DNA from: Patescibacteria group bacterium
GTDB taxonomy: Bacteria > Patescibacteriota > Patescibacteriia > JACRDY01
NCBI GenBank assembly: GCA_041653535.1
Contig: JBAZFH010000002.1
Location: 173,011-237,010, forward strand
Length of the DNA: 64,000 nucleotides
Reading direction: 5' to 3'
A program made the translations under genes and the position numbers. The notes beneath the pieces were generated by a model. It did no database searches and was not told the origin of the DNA. It saw only the letters and a program-made list of their open reading frames with translations. Of this stretch, positions 3,519 through 62,904 are shown in pieces; within the stretch, counting starts at the first letter, position 1; each line of letters starts with the position of its first letter.

Positions 3519-3866
3519 TTATTTTTTACTCTCCTGGCGGATTTGCTCAAGCAGTCTTTCTACTTCTTGTGCCGCCATCGCTCCTCGGTCAATGCGAAAA
3601 GACAGTAGTGGGGTAAATTGCCAATCCAGTTTGGCAGCCAATAAACGGCGCAATTCTTTGACGCTATCGCGCAGCTTACCATAAACAATACCAATATTTT
3701 CTTCGGGGCTGACGGTTATCCAGATTTTGGCGGAGCGCAGGTTTGGAGATATTTGCGCGCGCAAAACAGTTACCAAAGAATCTTTTGGCAATTCGATCTC
3801 TCTTGCTATGATTTCGCTTAATTTGTCGCGCAGCACTTCTCCGGCGCGTTGGGCTCTATTAGACAT
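3519..3866 (-). CDS. rbfA: Ribosome-binding factor A
   Basis: 115 aa. RAQRAGEVLRDKLSEII...VTVLRAQISPNLRSAKIWITV is the typical RbfA KH-like core. Confidence 0.85.
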   Translation of the reverse strand: MSNRAQRAGEVLRDKLSEIIAREIELPKDSLVTVLRAQISPNLRSAKIWITVSPEENIGIVYGKLRDSVKELRRLLAAKLDWQFTPLLSFRIDRGAMAAQEVERLLEQIRQESKK

Positions 3867-3991
3867 AAGTTCACTATATTATAGCACAAAATGATTTTTG
3901 TAAAGGTGCGGCAGGTAAAAGACGGAATGTATGATATAAGATTTGTAATTTTTAATCTCCAGCCGTTAGCCTTCAATCATTTATTTCCAAA

Positions 3992-13927: not shown

Positions 13928-14005
13928 TAGTATATAGTATATAGTATATACTATATAGTATAGAGTATAGAGGAAATTTACAAAAACCCTATATACTATA
14001 TACTA
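13928..14005. repeat. AGTATAT-type repeats forming a 17-bp perfect inverted repeat plus an inner 20-nt palindrome
   Basis: TAGTATATAGTATATAG (13928-13944) is the exact reverse complement of 13989-14005. There is an inner palindrome at 13938-13957. The 3' arm ends 6 nt before the rnhB ATG. Confidence 0.85.
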
Positions 14006-14691: not shown

Positions 14692-15000
14692 ATGGCAAAA
14701 GAACCATGGAGTGATGAGTCAATTACCGGTCCAAGAGTGGTGCCGTCTAACGCGGAGTTTGTTGATGTTCCCACTGACCCAAAAGTTGATGAAAAGATTT
14801 TTATCATGTCTTTGGTTTTACGTCCTGGTGAAAACCAGGTTGATACAGAAAAAATCCGTGATCGTTTTCAGAGAGTGGTAAGACATCTGGCAGCGCTAGA
14901 GGAAGAACTATTTGCCGGATTTGGCGAAGAAATGAAAAAAGCCGATTTGGAAGAGCTGCGTGACCGTTTCGAAAAATTAGTTAAAGAAAAAGCAGCCTAA
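14692..15000 (+). CDS. Hypothetical protein (102 aa, acidic, helical C-terminus)
   Basis: Clean ORF ending 9 nt before leuS. I recognise no motif. Confidence 0.4.
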   Translation: MAKEPWSDESITGPRVVPSNAEFVDVPTDPKVDEKIFIMSLVLRPGENQVDTEKIRDRFQRVVRHLAALEEELFAGFGEEMKKADLEELRDRFEKLVKEKAA

Positions 15001-15009
15001 GATAATTTT

Positions 15010-18000
15010 ATGAATGAATATAATCACCAAGAAATAGAAAAGAAATGGCAGAAGGTTTGGACAGGGCAAAATATTTATCGCACTCGAGAAGACAAGGGTA
15101 GACCCAAGTTTTACATTTTGGATATGTTTCCCTATCCCTCTGGTGTGGGACTACATGTTGGTCATCCCAAAGGATATATTGCTACTGATATTTTTGGTCG
15201 GGCTAAATCAATGCAGGGCTACAATGTGCTCCATCCCATGGGATGGGACGCTTTTGGCTTGCCGGCAGAAAACTACGCTATCCAAAACAAAGTTCATCCG
15301 CGCCAGGCGACAGAAGAAAATATCAAAACTTTCAAAAATCAGCTAGCCATACTCGGTTTCACTTACGATTGGGAAAGAGAAATCAATACTACTGACCCGG
15401 CGTATTACAAATGGACGCAGTGGGCTTTTATTCAGATGTTCAAAAAAGGTCTTGCTTACGAATCATACGAGCCGATCAACTGGTGTCCATCTTGCAAAAC
15501 CGGTCTAGCCAACGAAGATCTGGAAAACGGTCTTTGCGAACGTTGCGGTTCAGAAGTAGAACGTAAACCCATTCGACAGTGGGTGCTAAAGATTACCGAT
15601 TACGCCGACCGACTACTAAACGATTTGGAAAAATTGCCGGACTGGGAAGAGTCGATCAAAGAAATGCAGAGGAATTGGATTGGGAGGTCGGAGGGGGTAG
15701 AGATAGAATTTAAAATTAAAAATAATGGTGAGCAGCAGTATAACCCACCAATTAATTGGTGGGTTAACAGTGGTGACGGAGACGTTTGGTTTTTTGTTAC
15801 TTTCCCGACTTACAGCCGAGGTTTATTTTTTGAAGAGCAAGGTGAGGCTCAGAAAATAATCAATATTTTTGAGCAGATTGTTAAGGAAAAAAAATATCAA
15901 GTGGCAGATATCGCGGTTATGCCAGAGCACGTACACCTGCTTGTTAAACGCGGAAAAAAAGACGATTTGGAAAAGATTGTTAAAAACCTCAAAGGTATTA
16001 GTTCTCGTTTGTATGATCAAAGCGAGGAGCATTTATGGGCTAAAAGTTTTGAATACGAAACGATAGAGAACCAAGTAGATTTTGATAAGGTGATTAGTTA
16101 TTTACAAAATAATCCGATCAAGGCGGGTTTGCCAAAAGATGGTAGACTTTTATCCGAGTATCGGATGACTACGATTGGTGGGTCAGTCGACAGGATTAAG
16201 GTGTTTACTACTCGACCGGACACGCTCTATGGCGCAACTTATTTAGTATTGTCGCCGGAGTACGCGTGGTTAAACTCAGTGTCGCCGGAGTACGCGTGGT
16301 TAAACCACCAATTAATTGGTGGTTTAACCAATGCAGATGAAGTGGTGGCTTATATCGAGAAGACCAAGCAAAAAACCGATCTAGCTCGCCAGGCGGAAAA
16401 AGAAAAAACCGGCGTTGAGTTAAAAGGCATCAAAGCTATCAATCCGGTTAATGGCGACGAGCTGCCGATTTTTATTGCCGACTATGTTTTGTCCAGTTAC
16501 GGCACGGGAGCTATCATGGCAGTGCCAGCTCACGATGAAAGAGATTTTGAATTTGCCAAGAAATTTAACTTGCCGATCATTCCGGTTATTAAAGATGAGG
16601 ATAAAGATAAACGTGGAACAATTTTGGTTATTCATGGACTATGCGGAAATTCTAATGAAAATTGGTTTCCGTGGTTAAAAGATAATGCCCAAAAAATTGG
16701 TTATGAGGTTTTAGTCCCAGATCTACCAAATGCAGATGAACCAAAAATGGAAGAATGGTTGTCGGTTTTAGCTGGTCTAAAAGAAAAATTAGTTGGTGAG
16801 ATAATTGTAATTGGTCATAGTTTGGGCGCTGCAGTGGCTTGTAAATTTGTTGAAGAAAATAATTTGAAAATAAATAAGTTAATTTTAGTTGCGCCGACTG
16901 GGTCAAGTCAAGGTGAAGATAATTGGCAAGCGTTAAAAAGTGCTGGTGTAACAGATAGTGGCATTCAAGCAATTAAAGATTTTAACGGAGTGAAAATTGA
17001 TTGGAAAAATTTGCAAAGTTTAATCGAAAGTCCGTTTATTTGTATGTCAGACAATGATCCATATATTCCGTTGGAAGTTCAGAATGATTATAAAGGAATA
17101 AATCCGGCAATTAGAATATTTTCTAACTGCGGTCATTTTAATCAAAAAGCGGGTTTTATCAAGTTTCCTGAATTAATGGCGGAGATCATGGATGGGGCTT
17201 ATGTCGGCAAAGGTGGTTTGGTTAATTCAGGAGAATTTGATGGTATGGAAGTTGATGAAGCCAAGAAAAAAATTACTAAAAAAGTTGGCGGCAAACTGAC
17301 CGTCCAATACAAACTTCGCGATTGGGTGTTTTCTCGCCAGCGTTATTGGGGCGAGCCGATTCCGCTCGTCAAATGCGACAAATGCGGCTGGGTAGCAGTA
17401 CCGGAAAAAGATTTGCCGGTCGAGCTTCCTGATGTAAGATTTTACGAGCCAACCGGTACGGGTGAATCACCGCTAGCTAATATTACCGACTGGGTAAATA
17501 CCACTTGCCCGGAGTGCGGCGGACCAGCTAAACGTGAAACCAACACCATGCCACAGTGGGCTGGATCATCTTGGTATTATTTACGTTATATCGATCCGCA
17601 CAATGATACGGCGCTAGTCGACAAGAAAAAAGAAAAATATTGGTCGCCGGTTGATTTTTACGTTGGTGGAGCTGAGCACGCGACACGACATTTGATTTAC
17701 GCTAGATTTTGGCACAAATTTTTGTATGATATTGGCGCGGTAAATTATGATGAGCCGTTTAAGAGATTGCAACACGTTGGATTGATACTAGCTGAAGACG
17801 GTCGCAAGATGAGTAAGCGTTGGGGCAACGTGATAAACCCAAACGATATCGTCCGCGATTATGGCGCTGACGCCATGCGTGTTTACGAAATGTTTATGGG
17901 ACCTTTTTCGCAACCCTGCGCTTGGAGTACAGATGGGTTGGTTGGAGCTAGAAGATTTTTGGTTAAGATATGGAAATTGCAAGATAAAGTAAAGGAGACG

Positions 18001-18474
18001 GAAATTGAGAAATTAGAAATTAAGAAATTGGTTCATAAGACGATTAAAAAGGTTACCGAAGATATTGAAAACTTTAGGTTCAACACCGCTATCTCGGCGA
18101 TGATGATTTTGGTTAACGAAATGGAAAAGGAAGAAAGTATTTCAGCCGCCAATTTTCAATTTCTCATTTCTATATTATCTCCTTTTGCTCCGCATATCTG
18201 CGAAGAGTTGTGGCAAAAGCTTGGTCACATTGACAGTATTACTGTGCGGCCTTGGCCGAAATATGACGAGAAGCTGATTGTTGACGACGTTGTTAGCTTA
18301 GTCGTTCAGGTCAACGGCAAACTAAGAGAAAATATTGAAGTAGCAAAAGACATCACGGAAAAAGAAGCAACCGAGCTGGTGCTAGCAAGCGAAAAAATAC
18401 AGAAATGGCTAGAAGGGAAAACACCAAAGAAAATAATTTTTGTTCCGGGTAAATTAATTAATATAGTTGTTTAA
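15010..18474 (+). CDS. leuS: Leucine-tRNA ligase with two large in-frame insertions (1154 aa)
   Basis: HIGH motif (HVGHPKGY), CP1 editing motif TTRPDTLYGATY, AHDERDFEFA, RDWVFSRQRYWGEPIP, KMSKS motif (RKMSKRWGN), and a C-terminal anticodon-binding region, all in one frame. About 300 codons longer than the 860-aa E. coli LeuRS. Confidence 0.95.
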   Translation: MNEYNHQEIEKKWQKVWTGQNIYRTREDKGRPKFYILDMFPYPSGVGLHVGHPKGYIATDIFGRAKSMQGYNVLHPMGWDAFGLPAENYAIQNKVHPRQATEENIKTFKNQLAILGFTYDWEREINTTDPAYYKWTQWAFIQMFKKGLAYESYEPINWCPSCKTGLANEDLENGLCERCGSEVERKPIRQWVLKITDYADRLLNDLEKLPDWEESIKEMQRNWIGRSEGVEIEFKIKNNGEQQYNPPINWWVNSGDGDVWFFVTFPTYSRGLFFEEQGEAQKIINIFEQIVKEKKYQVADIAVMPEHVHLLVKRGKKDDLEKIVKNLKGISSRLYDQSEEHLWAKSFEYETIENQVDFDKVISYLQNNPIKAGLPKDGRLLSEYRMTTIGGSVDRIKVFTTRPDTLYGATYLVLSPEYAWLNSVSPEYAWLNHQLIGGLTNADEVVAYIEKTKQKTDLARQAEKEKTGVELKGIKAINPVNGDELPIFIADYVLSSYGTGAIMAVPAHDERDFEFAKKFNLPIIPVIKDEDKDKRGTILVIHGLCGNSNENWFPWLKDNAQKIGYEVLVPDLPNADEPKMEEWLSVLAGLKEKLVGEIIVIGHSLGAAVACKFVEENNLKINKLILVAPTGSSQGEDNWQALKSAGVTDSGIQAIKDFNGVKIDWKNLQSLIESPFICMSDNDPYIPLEVQNDYKGINPAIRIFSNCGHFNQKAGFIKFPELMAEIMDGAYVGKGGLVNSGEFDGMEVDEAKKKITKKVGGKLTVQYKLRDWVFSRQRYWGEPIPLVKCDKCGWVAVPEKDLPVELPDVRFYEPTGTGESPLANITDWVNTTCPECGGPAKRETNTMPQWAGSSWYYLRYIDPHNDTALVDKKKEKYWSPVDFYVGGAEHATRHLIYARFWHKFLYDIGAVNYDEPFKRLQHVGLILAEDGRKMSKRWGNVINPNDIVRDYGADAMRVYEMFMGPFSQPCAWSTDGLVGARRFLVKIWKLQDKVKETEIEKLEIKKLVHKTIKKVTEDIENFRFNTAISAMMILVNEMEKEESISAANFQFLISILSPFAPHICEELWQKLGHIDSITVRPWPKYDEKLIVDDVVSLVVQVNGKLRENIEVAKDITEKEATELVLASEKIQKWLEGKTPKKIIFVPGKLINIVV
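15741..15766. repeat. 26-nt perfect palindrome TAACCCACCAATTAATTGGTGGGTTA
   Basis: Checked base by base. The 18-nt core CCACCAATTAATTGGTGG is at 15745-15762. It is translated as NPPINWWV. Confidence 0.95.
16250..16305 (+). repeat. Tandem duplication (26-nt unit, 30-nt period) TGTCGCCGGAGTACGCGTGGTTAAAC
   Basis: 16250-16275 and 16280-16305 are identical. Together they encode SPEYAWLN-SV-SPEYAWLN. Confidence 0.95.
16298..16329. repeat. 32-nt perfect palindrome GGTTAAACCACCAATTAATTGGTGGTTTAACC
   Basis: Checked base by base. It carries the same 18-nt core at 16305-16322. It is translated in a different frame from the first copy, as LNHQLIGGLT. Confidence 0.95.
16591..17190 (+). other. Alpha/beta serine-hydrolase domain (YdeN/RBBP9-like) inserted in-frame in leuS
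   Basis: TILVIHGLCGNSNENWFPWLK...YEVLVPDLPNADEP...VIGHSLGA (Ser codon 16819-16821)...LILVAPTG...SDNDPYIP...NCGHF (His codon 17134-17136). It lies between LeuRS motifs AHDERDFEFAKKFNLPI and GGLVNSGEFDG. Confidence 0.75.
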
Positions 18475-18475
18475 T

Positions 18476-18964
18476 ATGATGGAAGGTGGTGAAATAATAG
18501 AGCAAAGAAAAACAGACGGTTCTGGAGTTAAAGAAGAGGCGGCTTTGCTTATAGAGCTTCAGGCTGCAGCGGAAAAAGAATTGTCAGATTTGATTTCCCT
18601 TTTTGAGAGAGAAATCACTGCTCCTACCAAACAATTTTCCTTATTTATAAAAAATTCCGTCGAGAGGCTGAAAAACAATCGTGACAGTGGGGGTGGTGAA
18701 ATCAAAGATGGTTTTAATGATATCTTTTCTCGTTATAATGCGGTTTATTCCAAAAGAAAAGAGGATGGAGTTTTTCGTCACAACCTTTTTGATTATTTTG
18801 TTCACGCGGTAGGCGTTTTGGATTTGTTGAAAATGGATATTGATGAAGGCAAAGACAGTAAAAAAAGAAGAAAACAGGCGTTGGAGCTCATTCGTTATGA
18901 CTATGAAAAAGCCAAGTCTTTTCTGGCGCAAAAAATAAACGGTTCTAACGGAAAAGAAGTCTAA
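18476..18964 (+). CDS. Hypothetical protein (~162 aa)
   Basis: The ORF track starts at TTG 18467, inside leuS. The first ATG (18476) is 1 nt after the leuS stop. I recognise no motif. Confidence 0.4.
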   Translation: MMEGGEIIEQRKTDGSGVKEEAALLIELQAAAEKELSDLISLFEREITAPTKQFSLFIKNSVERLKNNRDSGGGEIKDGFNDIFSRYNAVYSKRKEDGVFRHNLFDYFVHAVGVLDLLKMDIDEGKDSKKRRKQALELIRYDYEKAKSFLAQKINGSNGKEV

Positions 18965-18969
18965 GTTTT

Positions 18970-19671
18970 ATGCAAGCAGTGATACTAGCCGCCGGTCGTG
19001 GCGTACGTATGCAGCCTTTGACTTACGAAATACCAAAACCGATGCTCCGAGTGCAAGGCAAACCCATACTTGCTTACACCATAGATTTGTTGCCGGCAGA
19101 AATCGACGAAATTATTATTGTTGTTGGTTATCTCGGCGATCAGATCAAGGAATATTTCGGGCAAGACTACAACGGTAGAAAGGTTGTTTATGTCGAGCAG
19201 CAAGAACTGCTCGGTACAGGGCACGCATTGTCTTTATGTCGGGATATATTGCACGACAGATTTCTGGTTTTGATGGGAGATGATATATATTCTGCTGCCG
19301 ATATTCCGCGCTGTTTGGAGTACGAGCAAAGTATACTTGCCAAAGAAGTGACAGCCGAAGAAAAAAGAAATTACGGGGCGTTTGAAATAAACGACAAAGG
19401 AGATCTGATCGGTATTACCGAAAAAGAATTGCCGACCGGAGATAAGTTTTTGGTCAACACCGGTTTGTATGTACTAGACATGACATTTTTTGACTACGAT
19501 TTAGTCTCGATCAAAGACGGCAAAGAGTTTGGCCTACCGCAGACACTGGTGAATGTGGCCAAAGATCATCCGATCCGCATCGTGAAAACAGATTACTGGT
19601 TGCCGATAGGTTATCCTGATGATATCGAAAAAGCGGAGATATATTTGAGGAAAAATGGAGTGATTAGATAG
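18970..19671 (+). CDS. Sugar-1-phosphate nucleotidyltransferase (NTP_transferase family)
   Basis: 233 aa. MQAVILAAGRGVRMQPLTYEIPKPML matches the GxGxR signature, plus LLGTGHAL and GDD. Confidence 0.8.
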   Translation: MQAVILAAGRGVRMQPLTYEIPKPMLRVQGKPILAYTIDLLPAEIDEIIIVVGYLGDQIKEYFGQDYNGRKVVYVEQQELLGTGHALSLCRDILHDRFLVLMGDDIYSAADIPRCLEYEQSILAKEVTAEEKRNYGAFEINDKGDLIGITEKELPTGDKFLVNTGLYVLDMTFFDYDLVSIKDGKEFGLPQTLVNVAKDHPIRIVKTDYWLPIGYPDDIEKAEIYLRKNGVIR

Positions 19672-19703
19672 ATACTAGCCGCTAGCCGCTAGCGGCTAGT
19701 ATC
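19671..19703. repeat. 33-nt palindrome GATACTAGCCGCTAGC-C-GCTAGCGGCTAGTATC
   Basis: Two perfectly complementary 16-nt arms around one central base. It starts at the last base of the stop codon. Two copies of AGTATCTAGG follow (19698, 19724). Confidence 0.9.
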
Positions 19704-19761
19704 TAGGTCTTAGTATTTAGTATCTAGGGAACATTATCGCTTAATTTATAACCACCGTCCT

Positions 19762-61578: not shown

Positions 61579-62904
61579 ATGGAAGCTAGGCGTTTTAGAT
61601 TTTATTTACTGGTTATTTTATTAATAATAGCGATTGTTCGTTATTATTTATGGTTGCCGCAAAATGAGCCACGACAAGTGATTTATTACAATGGTCAAAA
61701 GCTTGATTTTAAAGCATTAGTGGTGGACGACCCCAAATACAACATTGACTCCGGTAAATTGGTCGTACAGCCAGAAAATTTGAAAGGAAAGGTTTTGGTT
61801 ACAACAGAACTTTACCCTAGATATTATTATGGTGATTTATTACAGATTAGCTGTCGTCTTGTCGCGCCAAAAGCCAAGGAGGGCTTTGCTTACGATAAAT
61901 ATTTGGCTAAGTCCGATATTTATTCTATTTGTTATCAGCCCAAAATAAACATCGTTGCCCGTGGTCAGGGCAGCAGCATCAAGCAGGCAATTTTTGCTTT
62001 TAAACAAAAGGCAATAAGGGTAATTGATCGGCAATTGCCGTCGCCGACTTCGGCGCTACTGACCGCTATTATTTTTGGTGATACTGGTAAAATACCCGCG
62101 GCGCTGGCTGATAATTTTTCTCGAACCGGAACAACGCATATTATGGCCGTATCAGGAATGAATATTACTTTATTGGTGGCGATTATGCTTAATTTTTTGG
62201 TGGCGGTCGGTCTGCGGCGTAAAACCGCTTATTATTTTATAGTTGTATTTTTATCAACTTTTGTTTTTTTGATTGGCGCGCCGGCTTCAGCGGTACGGGC
62301 GTTGATAATGGGTATACTGTGGCTGACCGCGGCGCAAATCGGGAGAATTAACAACTCCGGTTGGGCACTTACTTTAGCCGGCGCGGTGATGCTGGCGCTT
62401 AACCCGATGTTATTATTTTACGACGCTGGTTTTCAATTATCTTTTTTATCAATGTGGGGGCTGGGTAAATTTGGTGATCTGGTAAATAGATTTTTGGAAA
62501 AAGCAAAAATACCATCGGCTTTCGCTATCCGCGAGTCTCTTGCCTCTACTATCGCCGCGCAGATTGGCACTTTACCTCTCATGGTTTATAGTTTTCACAG
62601 TATTTCTATTATTTCACTGTTAGTAAACGTTTTAGTTTTGCCAGTAATACCAGTGGTGATGATTACCGGGTTGATTTTAGTTACTCTAGGCTTGGCGATT
62701 AAGGTATCGTTAATATTTTTATCATGGTTCGTATATTTATTTTTGTACTACATGGTCGGCATAATTAATTTTTTTGGAAAAGTGGATTTTGCGGCTTTAA
62801 ACATCAATATTGGCTTGTGGTCGGTCGTGGTTTACTATTTGTTGTTATTAGTAGCGCTTTATTGGAAGAAAGTAATTTTATGCTACCAAAGATTAAAAAA
62901 ATAA
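61579..62904 (+). CDS. comEC: ComEC/Rec2 DNA-uptake channel, N-terminal and membrane part
   Basis: 441 aa. DUF4131-like OB region, then the competence domain (TGTTHIMAVSGMNITLL). Confidence 0.8.
   Translation: MEARRFRFYLLVILLIIAIVRYYLWLPQNEPRQVIYYNGQKLDFKALVVDDPKYNIDSGKLVVQPENLKGKVLVTTELYPRYYYGDLLQISCRLVAPKAKEGFAYDKYLAKSDIYSICYQPKINIVARGQGSSIKQAIFAFKQKAIRVIDRQLPSPTSALLTAIIFGDTGKIPAALADNFSRTGTTHIMAVSGMNITLLVAIMLNFLVAVGLRRKTAYYFIVVFLSTFVFLIGAPASAVRALIMGILWLTAAQIGRINNSGWALTLAGAVMLALNPMLLFYDAGFQLSFLSMWGLGKFGDLVNRFLEKAKIPSAFAIRESLASTIAAQIGTLPLMVYSFHSISIISLLVNVLVLPVIPVVMITGLILVTLGLAIKVSLIFLSWFVYLFLYYMVGIINFFGKVDFAALNINIGLWSVVVYYLLLLVALYWKKVILCYQRLKK

Follow-up and report, generated by a model that had tools for sequence, protein, structure and literature searches.

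The 64,000-nt stretch analyzed here (the window: positions 173,011 to 237,010 of contig JBAZFH010000002.1, from a Patescibacteria group bacterium) contains a leuS gene for leucyl-tRNA synthetase (LeuRS) that includes, in-frame, a Y1 HUH tyrosine-transposase domain accompanied by two hairpins. The leuS open reading frame (ORF) extends from 15010 to 18474 on the forward strand, comprises 1154 codons and, as the first-pass annotation of this DNA had stated, runs through the transposase domain without an internal stop. The class I motifs HVGH and KMSKR and the editing motif TTRPDT are all present and fall into invariant columns of a LeuRS alignment (H49, G51, H52, K933–K936, and T405). The insert-free ortholog P0010 aligns by tblastn at 15010–15723, 16195–16590, and 17224–18471, which leaves two extra in-frame blocks.

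The first block (15724–16194, forward strand, 471 nt) adds 157 codons between the LeuRS motifs RNWIGRSEG and VFTTRPDT and consists of the 5′ hairpin, the Y1 domain, and a short tail. The LeuRS alignment places only about 8 residues at this site in insert-free proteins, and an earlier estimate of about 155 extra codons agrees well with the count from the tblastn break points. The block lacks its own start, stop, and promoter and exists only as part of the LeuRS ORF. Its site is the β-ribbon connecting the CP1 editing domain with the catalytic core. This hinge is permissive, since other Patescibacterial LeuRS orthologs hold quite different domains there (Ser-hydrolase, ASCH). The GC content of the insert (35–39%) is lower than that of the conserved LeuRS cores (41–52%), as had been noticed, but this is no mark of foreign origin because the native C-terminal domain also has only about 33% GC. 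NCBI annotates the window protein as "alpha/beta fold hydrolase" and its relative as "class I tRNA ligase family protein"; current databases therefore give no hint of this architecture.

The Y1 domain and its hairpins

The Y1 HUH fold spans 15787–16155 on the forward strand (residues 260–382, with the Pfam match at residues 263–368), as determined with Pfam, NCBIfam, AlphaFold, and Foldseek. Pfam family Y1_Tnp (PF01797) matches the insert alone with 61.5 bits (E 1.1e-16) and the full protein with 57.2 bits, compared to a cut-off of 23. The best NCBIfam family is REP_Tyr_transpos (NF047646) with 76.1 bits, just under the equivalog cut-off of 80, and the IS200/IS605 family NF033573 follows with 54.6 bits, also below its cut-off of 55. 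An AlphaFold model of the isolated domain is confident (mean predicted local-distance difference test, pLDDT, 81.7; core >90) and forms the Y1 fold, and the top 30 Foldseek matches of this model in the PDB are all Y1 transposases, including those of IS608 and IS200. The best E value belongs to ISDra2 TnpA (2xma, 4e-8), closely followed by E. coli TnpA-REP (4er8, 5e-8), which gives the lowest rmsd (3.2 Å). The insert is a member of the Y1 HUH superfamily that resembles the transposases associated with repetitive extragenic palindromes (REPs), known as RAYTs, just as the first-pass annotation had proposed. In the full-length AlphaFold model, LeuRS and a second insert (see below) are confident, and the Y1 region scores low (pLDDT 32–59) because the alignment has two rows there.

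The catalytic residues, which had been described as intact, are so. The HUH motif H307-V308-H309 (CAC GTA CAC) can be read directly from the sequence at 15928–15936 (forward strand). Tyr364 (TAT, 16099–16101, forward strand), assigned by alignment, lies within SYLQNNPIKAGL in a Y-x-x-N-P helix, corresponding to the predicted C-terminal helix of the model (residues 125–141). The domain thus combines the HUH motif with a single tyrosine. Across 65 aligned homologs both histidines are invariant and the tyrosine nearly so.

Two other types of insertion were considered and rejected. An intein would be expected to reveal itself by a Hint or intein family, and none appears among the Pfam matches to the full protein at E up to 1, nor is there a splicing motif. 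For a group I intron or IStron, no Rfam match was found at E up to 1 in 15000–18500, and the block is an ORF under amino-acid selection.

Immediately 5′ of the Y1 domain lies a perfect 13+13 palindrome, TAACCCACCAATT/AATTGGTGGGTTA (15741–15766), translated as YNPPINWWVN; it had been reported at exactly this position. A second perfect palindrome, TGGTTAAACCACCAATT/AATTGGTGGTTTAACCA, translated as WLNHQLIGGLTN, lies within CP1 sequence of native length, 110 nt beyond the end of the insert. This one had been recognized as perfect, with an extent of 16298–16329 that must be corrected to 16297–16330 (17+17). As also claimed before, the two hairpins have an 18-nt core in common, CCACCAATTAATTGGTGG, which occurs exactly twice in the 64 kb with 0 occurrences expected, and the two copies are read in the two stop-free frames (NPPINWW and HQLIGG). 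Only six perfect hairpins of at least 9 bp are found in the window, and shuffled sequence never produces arms above 10 bp. Folding as single-stranded DNA (ssDNA) gives z values of −5.6 for the 5′ hairpin and −5.9 for the 3′ hairpin.

At the right edge of the insert, the half-site ATTGGTGGGT (16174–16183, forward strand) is identical to the 3′ arm of the 5′ hairpin. It may be the remnant of a right-end hairpin, with the reservation that its significance was judged post hoc, and it has no counterpart in the closest relative, L001 (see below). The small hairpin next to it (16152–16166), which had been reported together with the half-site, is not significant (z = −1.8) and was discarded as a functional right end. 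Also confirmed is a 26-nt perfect direct duplication on the forward strand (16250–16275 and 16280–16305, separated by the 4-nt filler TCAG), which adds SVSPEYAWLN to the protein. This duplication, which directly adjoins the 3′ hairpin on its 5′ side, does not occur in L001. It qualifies neither as a flanking target-site duplication nor as a clean tandem duplication, and we have no explanation for its origin.

Two other long perfect palindromes of the window, both apparently between ORFs, are unrelated in sequence to the leuS hairpins: an AT-only 27-mer at 13931–13957, and a 37-mer with 18-bp arms at 19669–19705, which begins at the stop codon of a nucleotidyltransferase-like gene (18970–19671). 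The second in-frame block of leuS (16591–17223, 211 codons) encodes a Ser_hydrolase domain (PF06821, α/β hydrolase) inside the CP1 editing domain, with the triad motifs GHSLGA, DNDPY, and CGHF in place and a confident AlphaFold model. The hairpin scan of the window found no hairpins flanking this insert. Other Patescibacterial LeuRS carry a Ser_hydrolase domain at two other sites, at the hinge and after the Zn knuckle, and NUDIX, ASCH, methyltransferase, and further domains are also seen in LeuRS proteins.

Related copies and the link to leuS

An exhaustive phmmer search over 1.84 billion (1.84e9) representatives returned 1131 matches to the insert. A word-index homolog search with the 167-aa insert returned none, although the exact protein is present in that database. 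The best phmmer match, P0121 (locus L001, GCA_026395715.1), is a Parcubacteria LeuRS from an independent assembly with an insert at the same position. The two inserts are 58% identical by tblastn and 59% identical across the aligned Y1 codons. Locus L001 also has both hairpins at the same two places. The upstream one reads GGTTAACCCACCAAT-GA-ATTGGTGGGTTAACC, and the downstream one is built on a 17-bp stem that deviates from that of the window by compensatory changes and includes one G:T (G:U) position. The first-pass annotation had considered that relatives might carry the segment without the palindromes and with degraded HUH and Tyr residues; the one available relative has the palindromes as well as intact HUH and Tyr residues.

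More distant copies show the same design. P0153 (L002) is a LeuRS of a distant, GC-richer lineage with a Y1 domain at the same hinge, and L140 encodes a second LeuRS of this type. In both genes, a perfect palindrome of 30–34 nt lies just 5′ of the in-frame Y1 domain, and this upstream hairpin is the only one. Its foot is GTTAACC...GGTTAAC as in the window. The middle of the stem differs between copies (CCGGGGG in L002, CGCGCC in L140, and CTACCAC in the isoleucyl-tRNA synthetase locus L004), with the same foot throughout. In-frame Y1 domains also occur in two isoleucyl-tRNA synthetases (IleRS; P0129 and P0220, loci L003 and L004), where a hairpin of the leuS family lies inside the Y1 domain, and in three restriction-modification proteins (a type ISP enzyme, an Eco57I-like methylase, and HsdS). 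In the HsdS gene (L006), hairpin, Y1 domain, and second hairpin are all in-frame, with an unrelated, identical 28-nt hairpin on each side. Contrary to what had been implied, the arrangement is not unique, since it recurs in no fewer than four LeuRS, in two IleRS, and in three restriction-modification proteins. It is sporadic nonetheless: PF01797 is found in 2 of about 240 listed Patescibacterial LeuRS, namely, the window protein (P0001) and P0121, and the nearest relatives of each are without it.

Some of these genes have further peculiarities. The IleRS P0129 (L003 3001–6201) holds three foreign domains in one ORF, a Y1 domain containing a 34-nt palindrome of the leuS hairpin family, a His_Phos_1 phosphatase, and a C-terminal GNAT acetyltransferase. 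The type ISP protein (L005 2347–6984) and HsdS (L006 3001–5307) have their Y1 domains amid many repeated peptides (VGQTFLSVP..., SGKTGFIPSPVPKLP..., SKDGINPIFT), which are translated DNA hairpins. In L002, the Y1-bearing leuS reaches a stop after 510 codons, 88 nt before the start of the next called gene (3832–3920), which could reflect a frameshift, a pseudogene, or an assembly error. Finally, L143 (1606–2958) and L144 (128–1480) encode a TatD DNase with a Ser_hydrolase domain in the middle of the protein, beside a free-standing Y1 gene. This is another whole-domain insertion, in an apparently related genome.

The recurrence of the insert bears on the question as to whether a transposase gene could have been placed in leuS by a chimeric assembly. 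The window stems from a metagenome-assembled genome, and palindromes together with a 26-nt duplication near the junctions are features that could invite a mis-join. However, both junctions are in-frame, an independent assembly (L001) has the same insert at the same codon position with both hairpins, and analogous inserts exist in L002 and L140. Moreover, the identical protein is found on a 323-kb contig of a Patescibacteria metagenome-assembled genome in both NCBI and JGI. We consider the chance of such an artifact to be negligible.

The gene context of the relatives reveals an association that the first-pass annotation had missed. In four further genomes of the GC-rich lineage, leuS is directly preceded by a Y1 gene, whose stop overlaps the start of leuS in three of the four. 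In L135, L136, and L137–139 the Y1 gene is located between der and leuS, the overlap amounts to 4 nt (ATGA), and hairpins are found at the 5′ end and in the 3′ tail of the Y1 gene. L140 (3001–6588) contains both forms, an upstream Y1 gene and a second, diverged Y1 domain in-frame at the leuS hinge, with about 40% identity (estimated by eye). The LeuRS of this locus reads TTTADT where the editing motif TTRPDT is expected. Eight of the ten best phmmer matches have usable gene context, and six of these eight lie in or directly before leuS or ileS; the exceptions are P0128 and P0130. As a negative control, none of 80 generic RAYT-like loci adjoins leuS (among the matches listed from a contig scan with the Y1 alignment, mostly Acidobacteriota). 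A simple neighbor-joining tree of the Y1 domains groups the window with L001 (bootstrap 100), the GC-rich leuS group (100), and all leuS-associated copies (63), with in-frame and upstream forms interleaved. As judged from gene context and this tree, this Y1 clade is bound to leuS in two or more distant bacterial lineages, either in-frame at the hinge or directly upstream.

Age, selection, and hairpin dispersal

Comparison of the window with L001 provides an indication of age. The number of nonsynonymous changes per site (dN) is 0.34 in the Y1 domain vs 0.36–0.41 in the catalytic halves of LeuRS. Identical residues share the same codon only about half the time everywhere, which means that synonymous sites are saturated. 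Because synonymous divergence (dS) is saturated and dN of the Y1 domain equals that of the catalytic halves, we conclude that the insert is old and under purifying selection. The saturation also precludes a proper dN/dS estimate. The idea of a recent in-frame invasion, put forward in the first-pass annotation, finds no support in this divergence. The 5′ hairpin stands out from the general saturation: six of its six codons are identical, and its nucleotide identity is 88%.

These numbers also speak to the possibility that the insert is a neutral relic, an old tolerated insertion that decays slowly and has no remaining activity. Such a relic would be consistent with a GC content below that of the conserved LeuRS cores, and with a single copy that gives no sign of recent movement. 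But the HUH, Tyr, and K/S/R/W motif residues are intact in all in-frame copies, dN resembles that of the catalytic core while dS is saturated, and 157 stop-free codons have been kept in at least four LeuRS genes. We therefore regard a decaying relic as very improbable.

The surrounding LeuRS sequence has a mosaic appearance. The catalytic halves of P0001 are 81–83% identical to those of Y1-less orthologs and only 53–56% identical to those of P0121. When 239 proteins are ranked by similarity to P0001, P0121 comes 125th and 238th for the two catalytic halves, first for residues 397–429, and approximately 35th to 42nd for CP1. This pattern is suggestive, and no more than that, of an exchange of a hinge/CP1 cassette with a recombination break at the hairpins, given that the segment in question measures only 24–33 residues and that CP1 similarity ranks are scrambled for many LeuRS. 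Elsewhere in the window, a ComEC competence protein is encoded at 61579–62904. This DNA-uptake channel would bring ssDNA into the cell, a point of interest both for a nuclease specific to ssDNA and for horizontal exchange.

The hairpins themselves are conserved as structures. In an alignment of 15 hairpins, 12 of 15 stem pairs have changed on both sides, and 92.9% of the cells remain paired. None of 500 shuffles reaches this result, and no slid register comes close either. These compensatory changes indicate that the hairpins are part of the module and that selection acts on them as nucleic acid, in line with the first suggestion that they go together with the Y1 domain. A metagenome scan for the pattern TAAMCCACCA-N6-TGGTGGKTTA identified 48 loci, many of them from two metagenomes and several on one contig. 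These loci range from 24% to about 50% GC; the hairpin occurs in both orientations and usually lies in a short open stretch of intergenic appearance. In other metagenomes the leuS hairpin family thus behaves in a REP-like manner, as a dispersed repeat. One solo hairpin, GTTAACCCACCACTTAAGTGGTGGGTTAAC, is inserted without loss of frame into the part of an fpg/mutM gene that encodes the N-terminal domain (L098 1743–1772); this gene is otherwise intact. Viral contigs contained no Y1 relative and only two hairpin matches; hence, there is no evidence for a phage vector.

Selection on hairpin structure could in principle also reflect a function as RNA, for example, if structures in the leuS mRNA paused or tuned translation or stabilized the message, with the Y1 domain being incidental. 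The stems are kept by compensatory changes that include one G:T (G:U) position in L001, both hairpins lie on the transcribed and translated strand, and REPs elsewhere in bacteria are frequently assumed to function at the RNA level (PMC3733652). On the other hand, a perfect palindrome can fold just as well on the opposite strand and as DNA, and no Rfam family matches these hairpins. In other genomes, the same family occurs in either orientation and mostly in intergenic-looking short open stretches. A hairpin also accompanies the Y1 domain at all times, even where the host gene differs. For these reasons we think that a purely RNA-based role is improbable, although less so than a neutral relic.

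Interpretation and comparison with known systems

The analysis establishes the fold of the insert, its intact catalytic residues, its in-frame translation under purifying selection, the covariation of its hairpins, its recurrence in other hosts, its link to leuS, and its old age. We believe that these observations are probably best explained by an ancient, selectively maintained module of the REPtron or IS200 type, in which a RAYT-like Y1 HUH nuclease and its cognate hairpins persist as a translated passenger of leuS. By analogy with IS608 TnpA, ISDra2 TnpA, and E. coli TnpA-REP, the Y1 domain would act as a nuclease that recognizes the GTTAACC-footed hairpin in ssDNA and cuts beside it by means of Tyr364 and a metal held by H307 and H309. 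Cutting would mobilize hairpin-bounded DNA, either as solo hairpins or as the whole module, and we infer past or present mobility on this basis. Residence in an essential, constitutively expressed gene would provide the module with expression and with protection from imprecise deletion.

Among known systems, REPtrons are the closest match. REP_Tyr_transpos is the best NCBIfam family, TnpA-REP (4ER8) is the fold match with the lowest rmsd, and the HUH motif is likewise combined with a single tyrosine. Short, covariation-supported palindromes flank the domain (5′ and 3′ in the window and L001, 5′ in L002 and L140), and the module seems to resemble REPtrons in its single copy (in the window), in its fixed chromosomal location in or next to leuS, and in its deep conservation. 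In contrast to REPtrons, the leuS-associated Y1 domain is not free-standing, but is either an internal domain of LeuRS or encoded by a gene with a stop that overlaps the leuS start. It scores below the equivalog cut-off, its hairpins have a GTTAACC foot instead of a GTAG tag, no dispersed population of REPs or REPINs exists in the 64 kb, and its occurrence among LeuRS lineages is sporadic. With TnpA of the IS200/IS605 family (IS608, ISDra2) it shares the Y1 HUH fold, hairpins at or near both ends, and a compact size of about 130 aa. It differs from these elements by having no ORF, promoter, or stop of its own, by occurring once in the window, and by left and right ends that cannot be defined. 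Furthermore, the leuS palindromes are perfect, whereas the hairpins of IS608 are imperfect and subterminal. LeuRS is a monomer, and IS608 TnpA is a dimer with active sites assembled in trans.

Rickettsia palindromic elements (RPEs) and intragenic REPs are short, stop-free, in-frame palindromes in functional genes, many of which have housekeeping or repair functions (PMC3733652). Both leuS hairpins and the fpg copy in L098 are similarly read through in-frame and leave the host gene intact. However, RPEs and intragenic REPs are non-coding passengers without an enzyme, whereas in leuS the presumed mobilizing enzyme itself is embedded in the host protein. REPtrons, RPEs, and intragenic REPs all differ from the present case, in which the enzyme forms an internal part of an essential protein and belongs to a clade bound to a single host gene. 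There is also a resemblance to inteins and homing-endonuclease elements in that a selfish-looking enzyme domain is situated in an essential protein between two highly conserved host motifs, with a sporadic phylogenetic distribution and flanking sequence of mosaic history. In contrast to inteins, nothing suggests that the domain is removed from the protein, and in contrast to homing endonucleases, which are double-strand enzymes, it is a predicted single-strand HUH nuclease.

Several observations weigh against the interpretation as a REPtron-type module. There is one Y1 copy with only two hairpins, and no second leuS, in the 64-kb window, so that neither a dispersed repeat population nor recent movement is apparent there. 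The hairpins are without the GTAG or CGTC tag of classical REPs. A native LeuRS segment separates the 3′ hairpin from the insert, and L002 and L140 have no such hairpin; this leaves the ends of the module undefined, and the initial view of hairpins on either side of the transposase, taken as simple element ends, finds no support. None of the 48 short hairpin-bearing metagenome loci contains a Y1 gene; the pairing of Y1 domain and hairpin family rests on their co-occurrence in six aminoacyl-tRNA synthetase genes. Eight of the 15 rows behind the covariation result were retrieved with a palindromic pattern, though the seven aminoacyl-tRNA synthetase rows were not. The low confidence of the full-length model in the Y1 region (pLDDT 32–59) makes it uninformative as to how the Y1 domain packs against LeuRS. 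Finally, deep conservation at a fixed locus fits a domesticated, host-beneficial role as well as a selfish one.

Such domestication is the main alternative. According to this explanation, the Y1 domain is no longer mobile and has been kept for a host function together with LeuRS, possibly in the processing of genomic hairpins (as proposed for single-copy RAYTs), in nucleic-acid binding near the CP1 hinge, or in autoregulation of leuS through the hairpins. It would account for catalytic residues and a sequence conserved like the LeuRS core despite saturated synonymous sites, for a leuS location that is fixed in two distant lineages with der-Y1-leuS synteny and the ATGA stop/start overlap maintained, and for the absence of extra hairpin copies in the window. 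It also matches the profile reported for RAYTs: single copy, fixed locus, and vertical inheritance (bioRxiv 10.1101/2021.07.10.451892). What domestication explains less well is the sporadic distribution, given that the closest LeuRS relatives of both P0001 and P0121 have no insert. The interleaving of in-frame and upstream forms in the Y1 tree implies relocation between these two sites. IleRS and three restriction-modification proteins, which are unrelated hosts, contain related Y1 domains with hairpins, and this speaks against a function specific to LeuRS; the hairpin family is also dispersed in other genomes. On balance, we judge domestication to be rather unlikely, with the qualification that it overlaps with the interpretation as a maintained module and that the current data do not separate the two.

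More tentatively, the module could represent an unrecognized class of elements in which a Y1 nuclease and its hairpins are dedicated to the genes of class Ia aminoacyl-tRNA synthetases and to leuS in particular. Elements of this kind would switch between upstream and CP1-hinge sites, endure as very long-lived translated passengers, and spread between lineages through exchange of hinge/CP1 cassettes. An HUH transposase would then have adopted what amounts to an intein-like way of life, but without splicing. The fusion to LeuRS may couple the nuclease to translation, or it may regulate leuS through the module's own hairpins. A literature search retrieved intragenic REPs and RPEs as well as REPtrons, but no aminoacyl-tRNA synthetase that contains a Y1 domain or is coupled to one.

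One expects a transposase to interrupt genes or to lie in the DNA between them. In leuS, an intact HUH transposase-like domain has been conserved within an enzyme that is essential for translation. The domain is a compact candidate for a hairpin-specific ssDNA nuclease, and the flanking hairpins provide its candidate target. If it is active, it would exemplify a new strategy for the persistence of a mobile element, which would gain expression and protection by embedding itself in an essential ORF. This may also be a route by which whole enzyme domains enter the proteins of the streamlined Patescibacteria, whose LeuRS carries many foreign domains.

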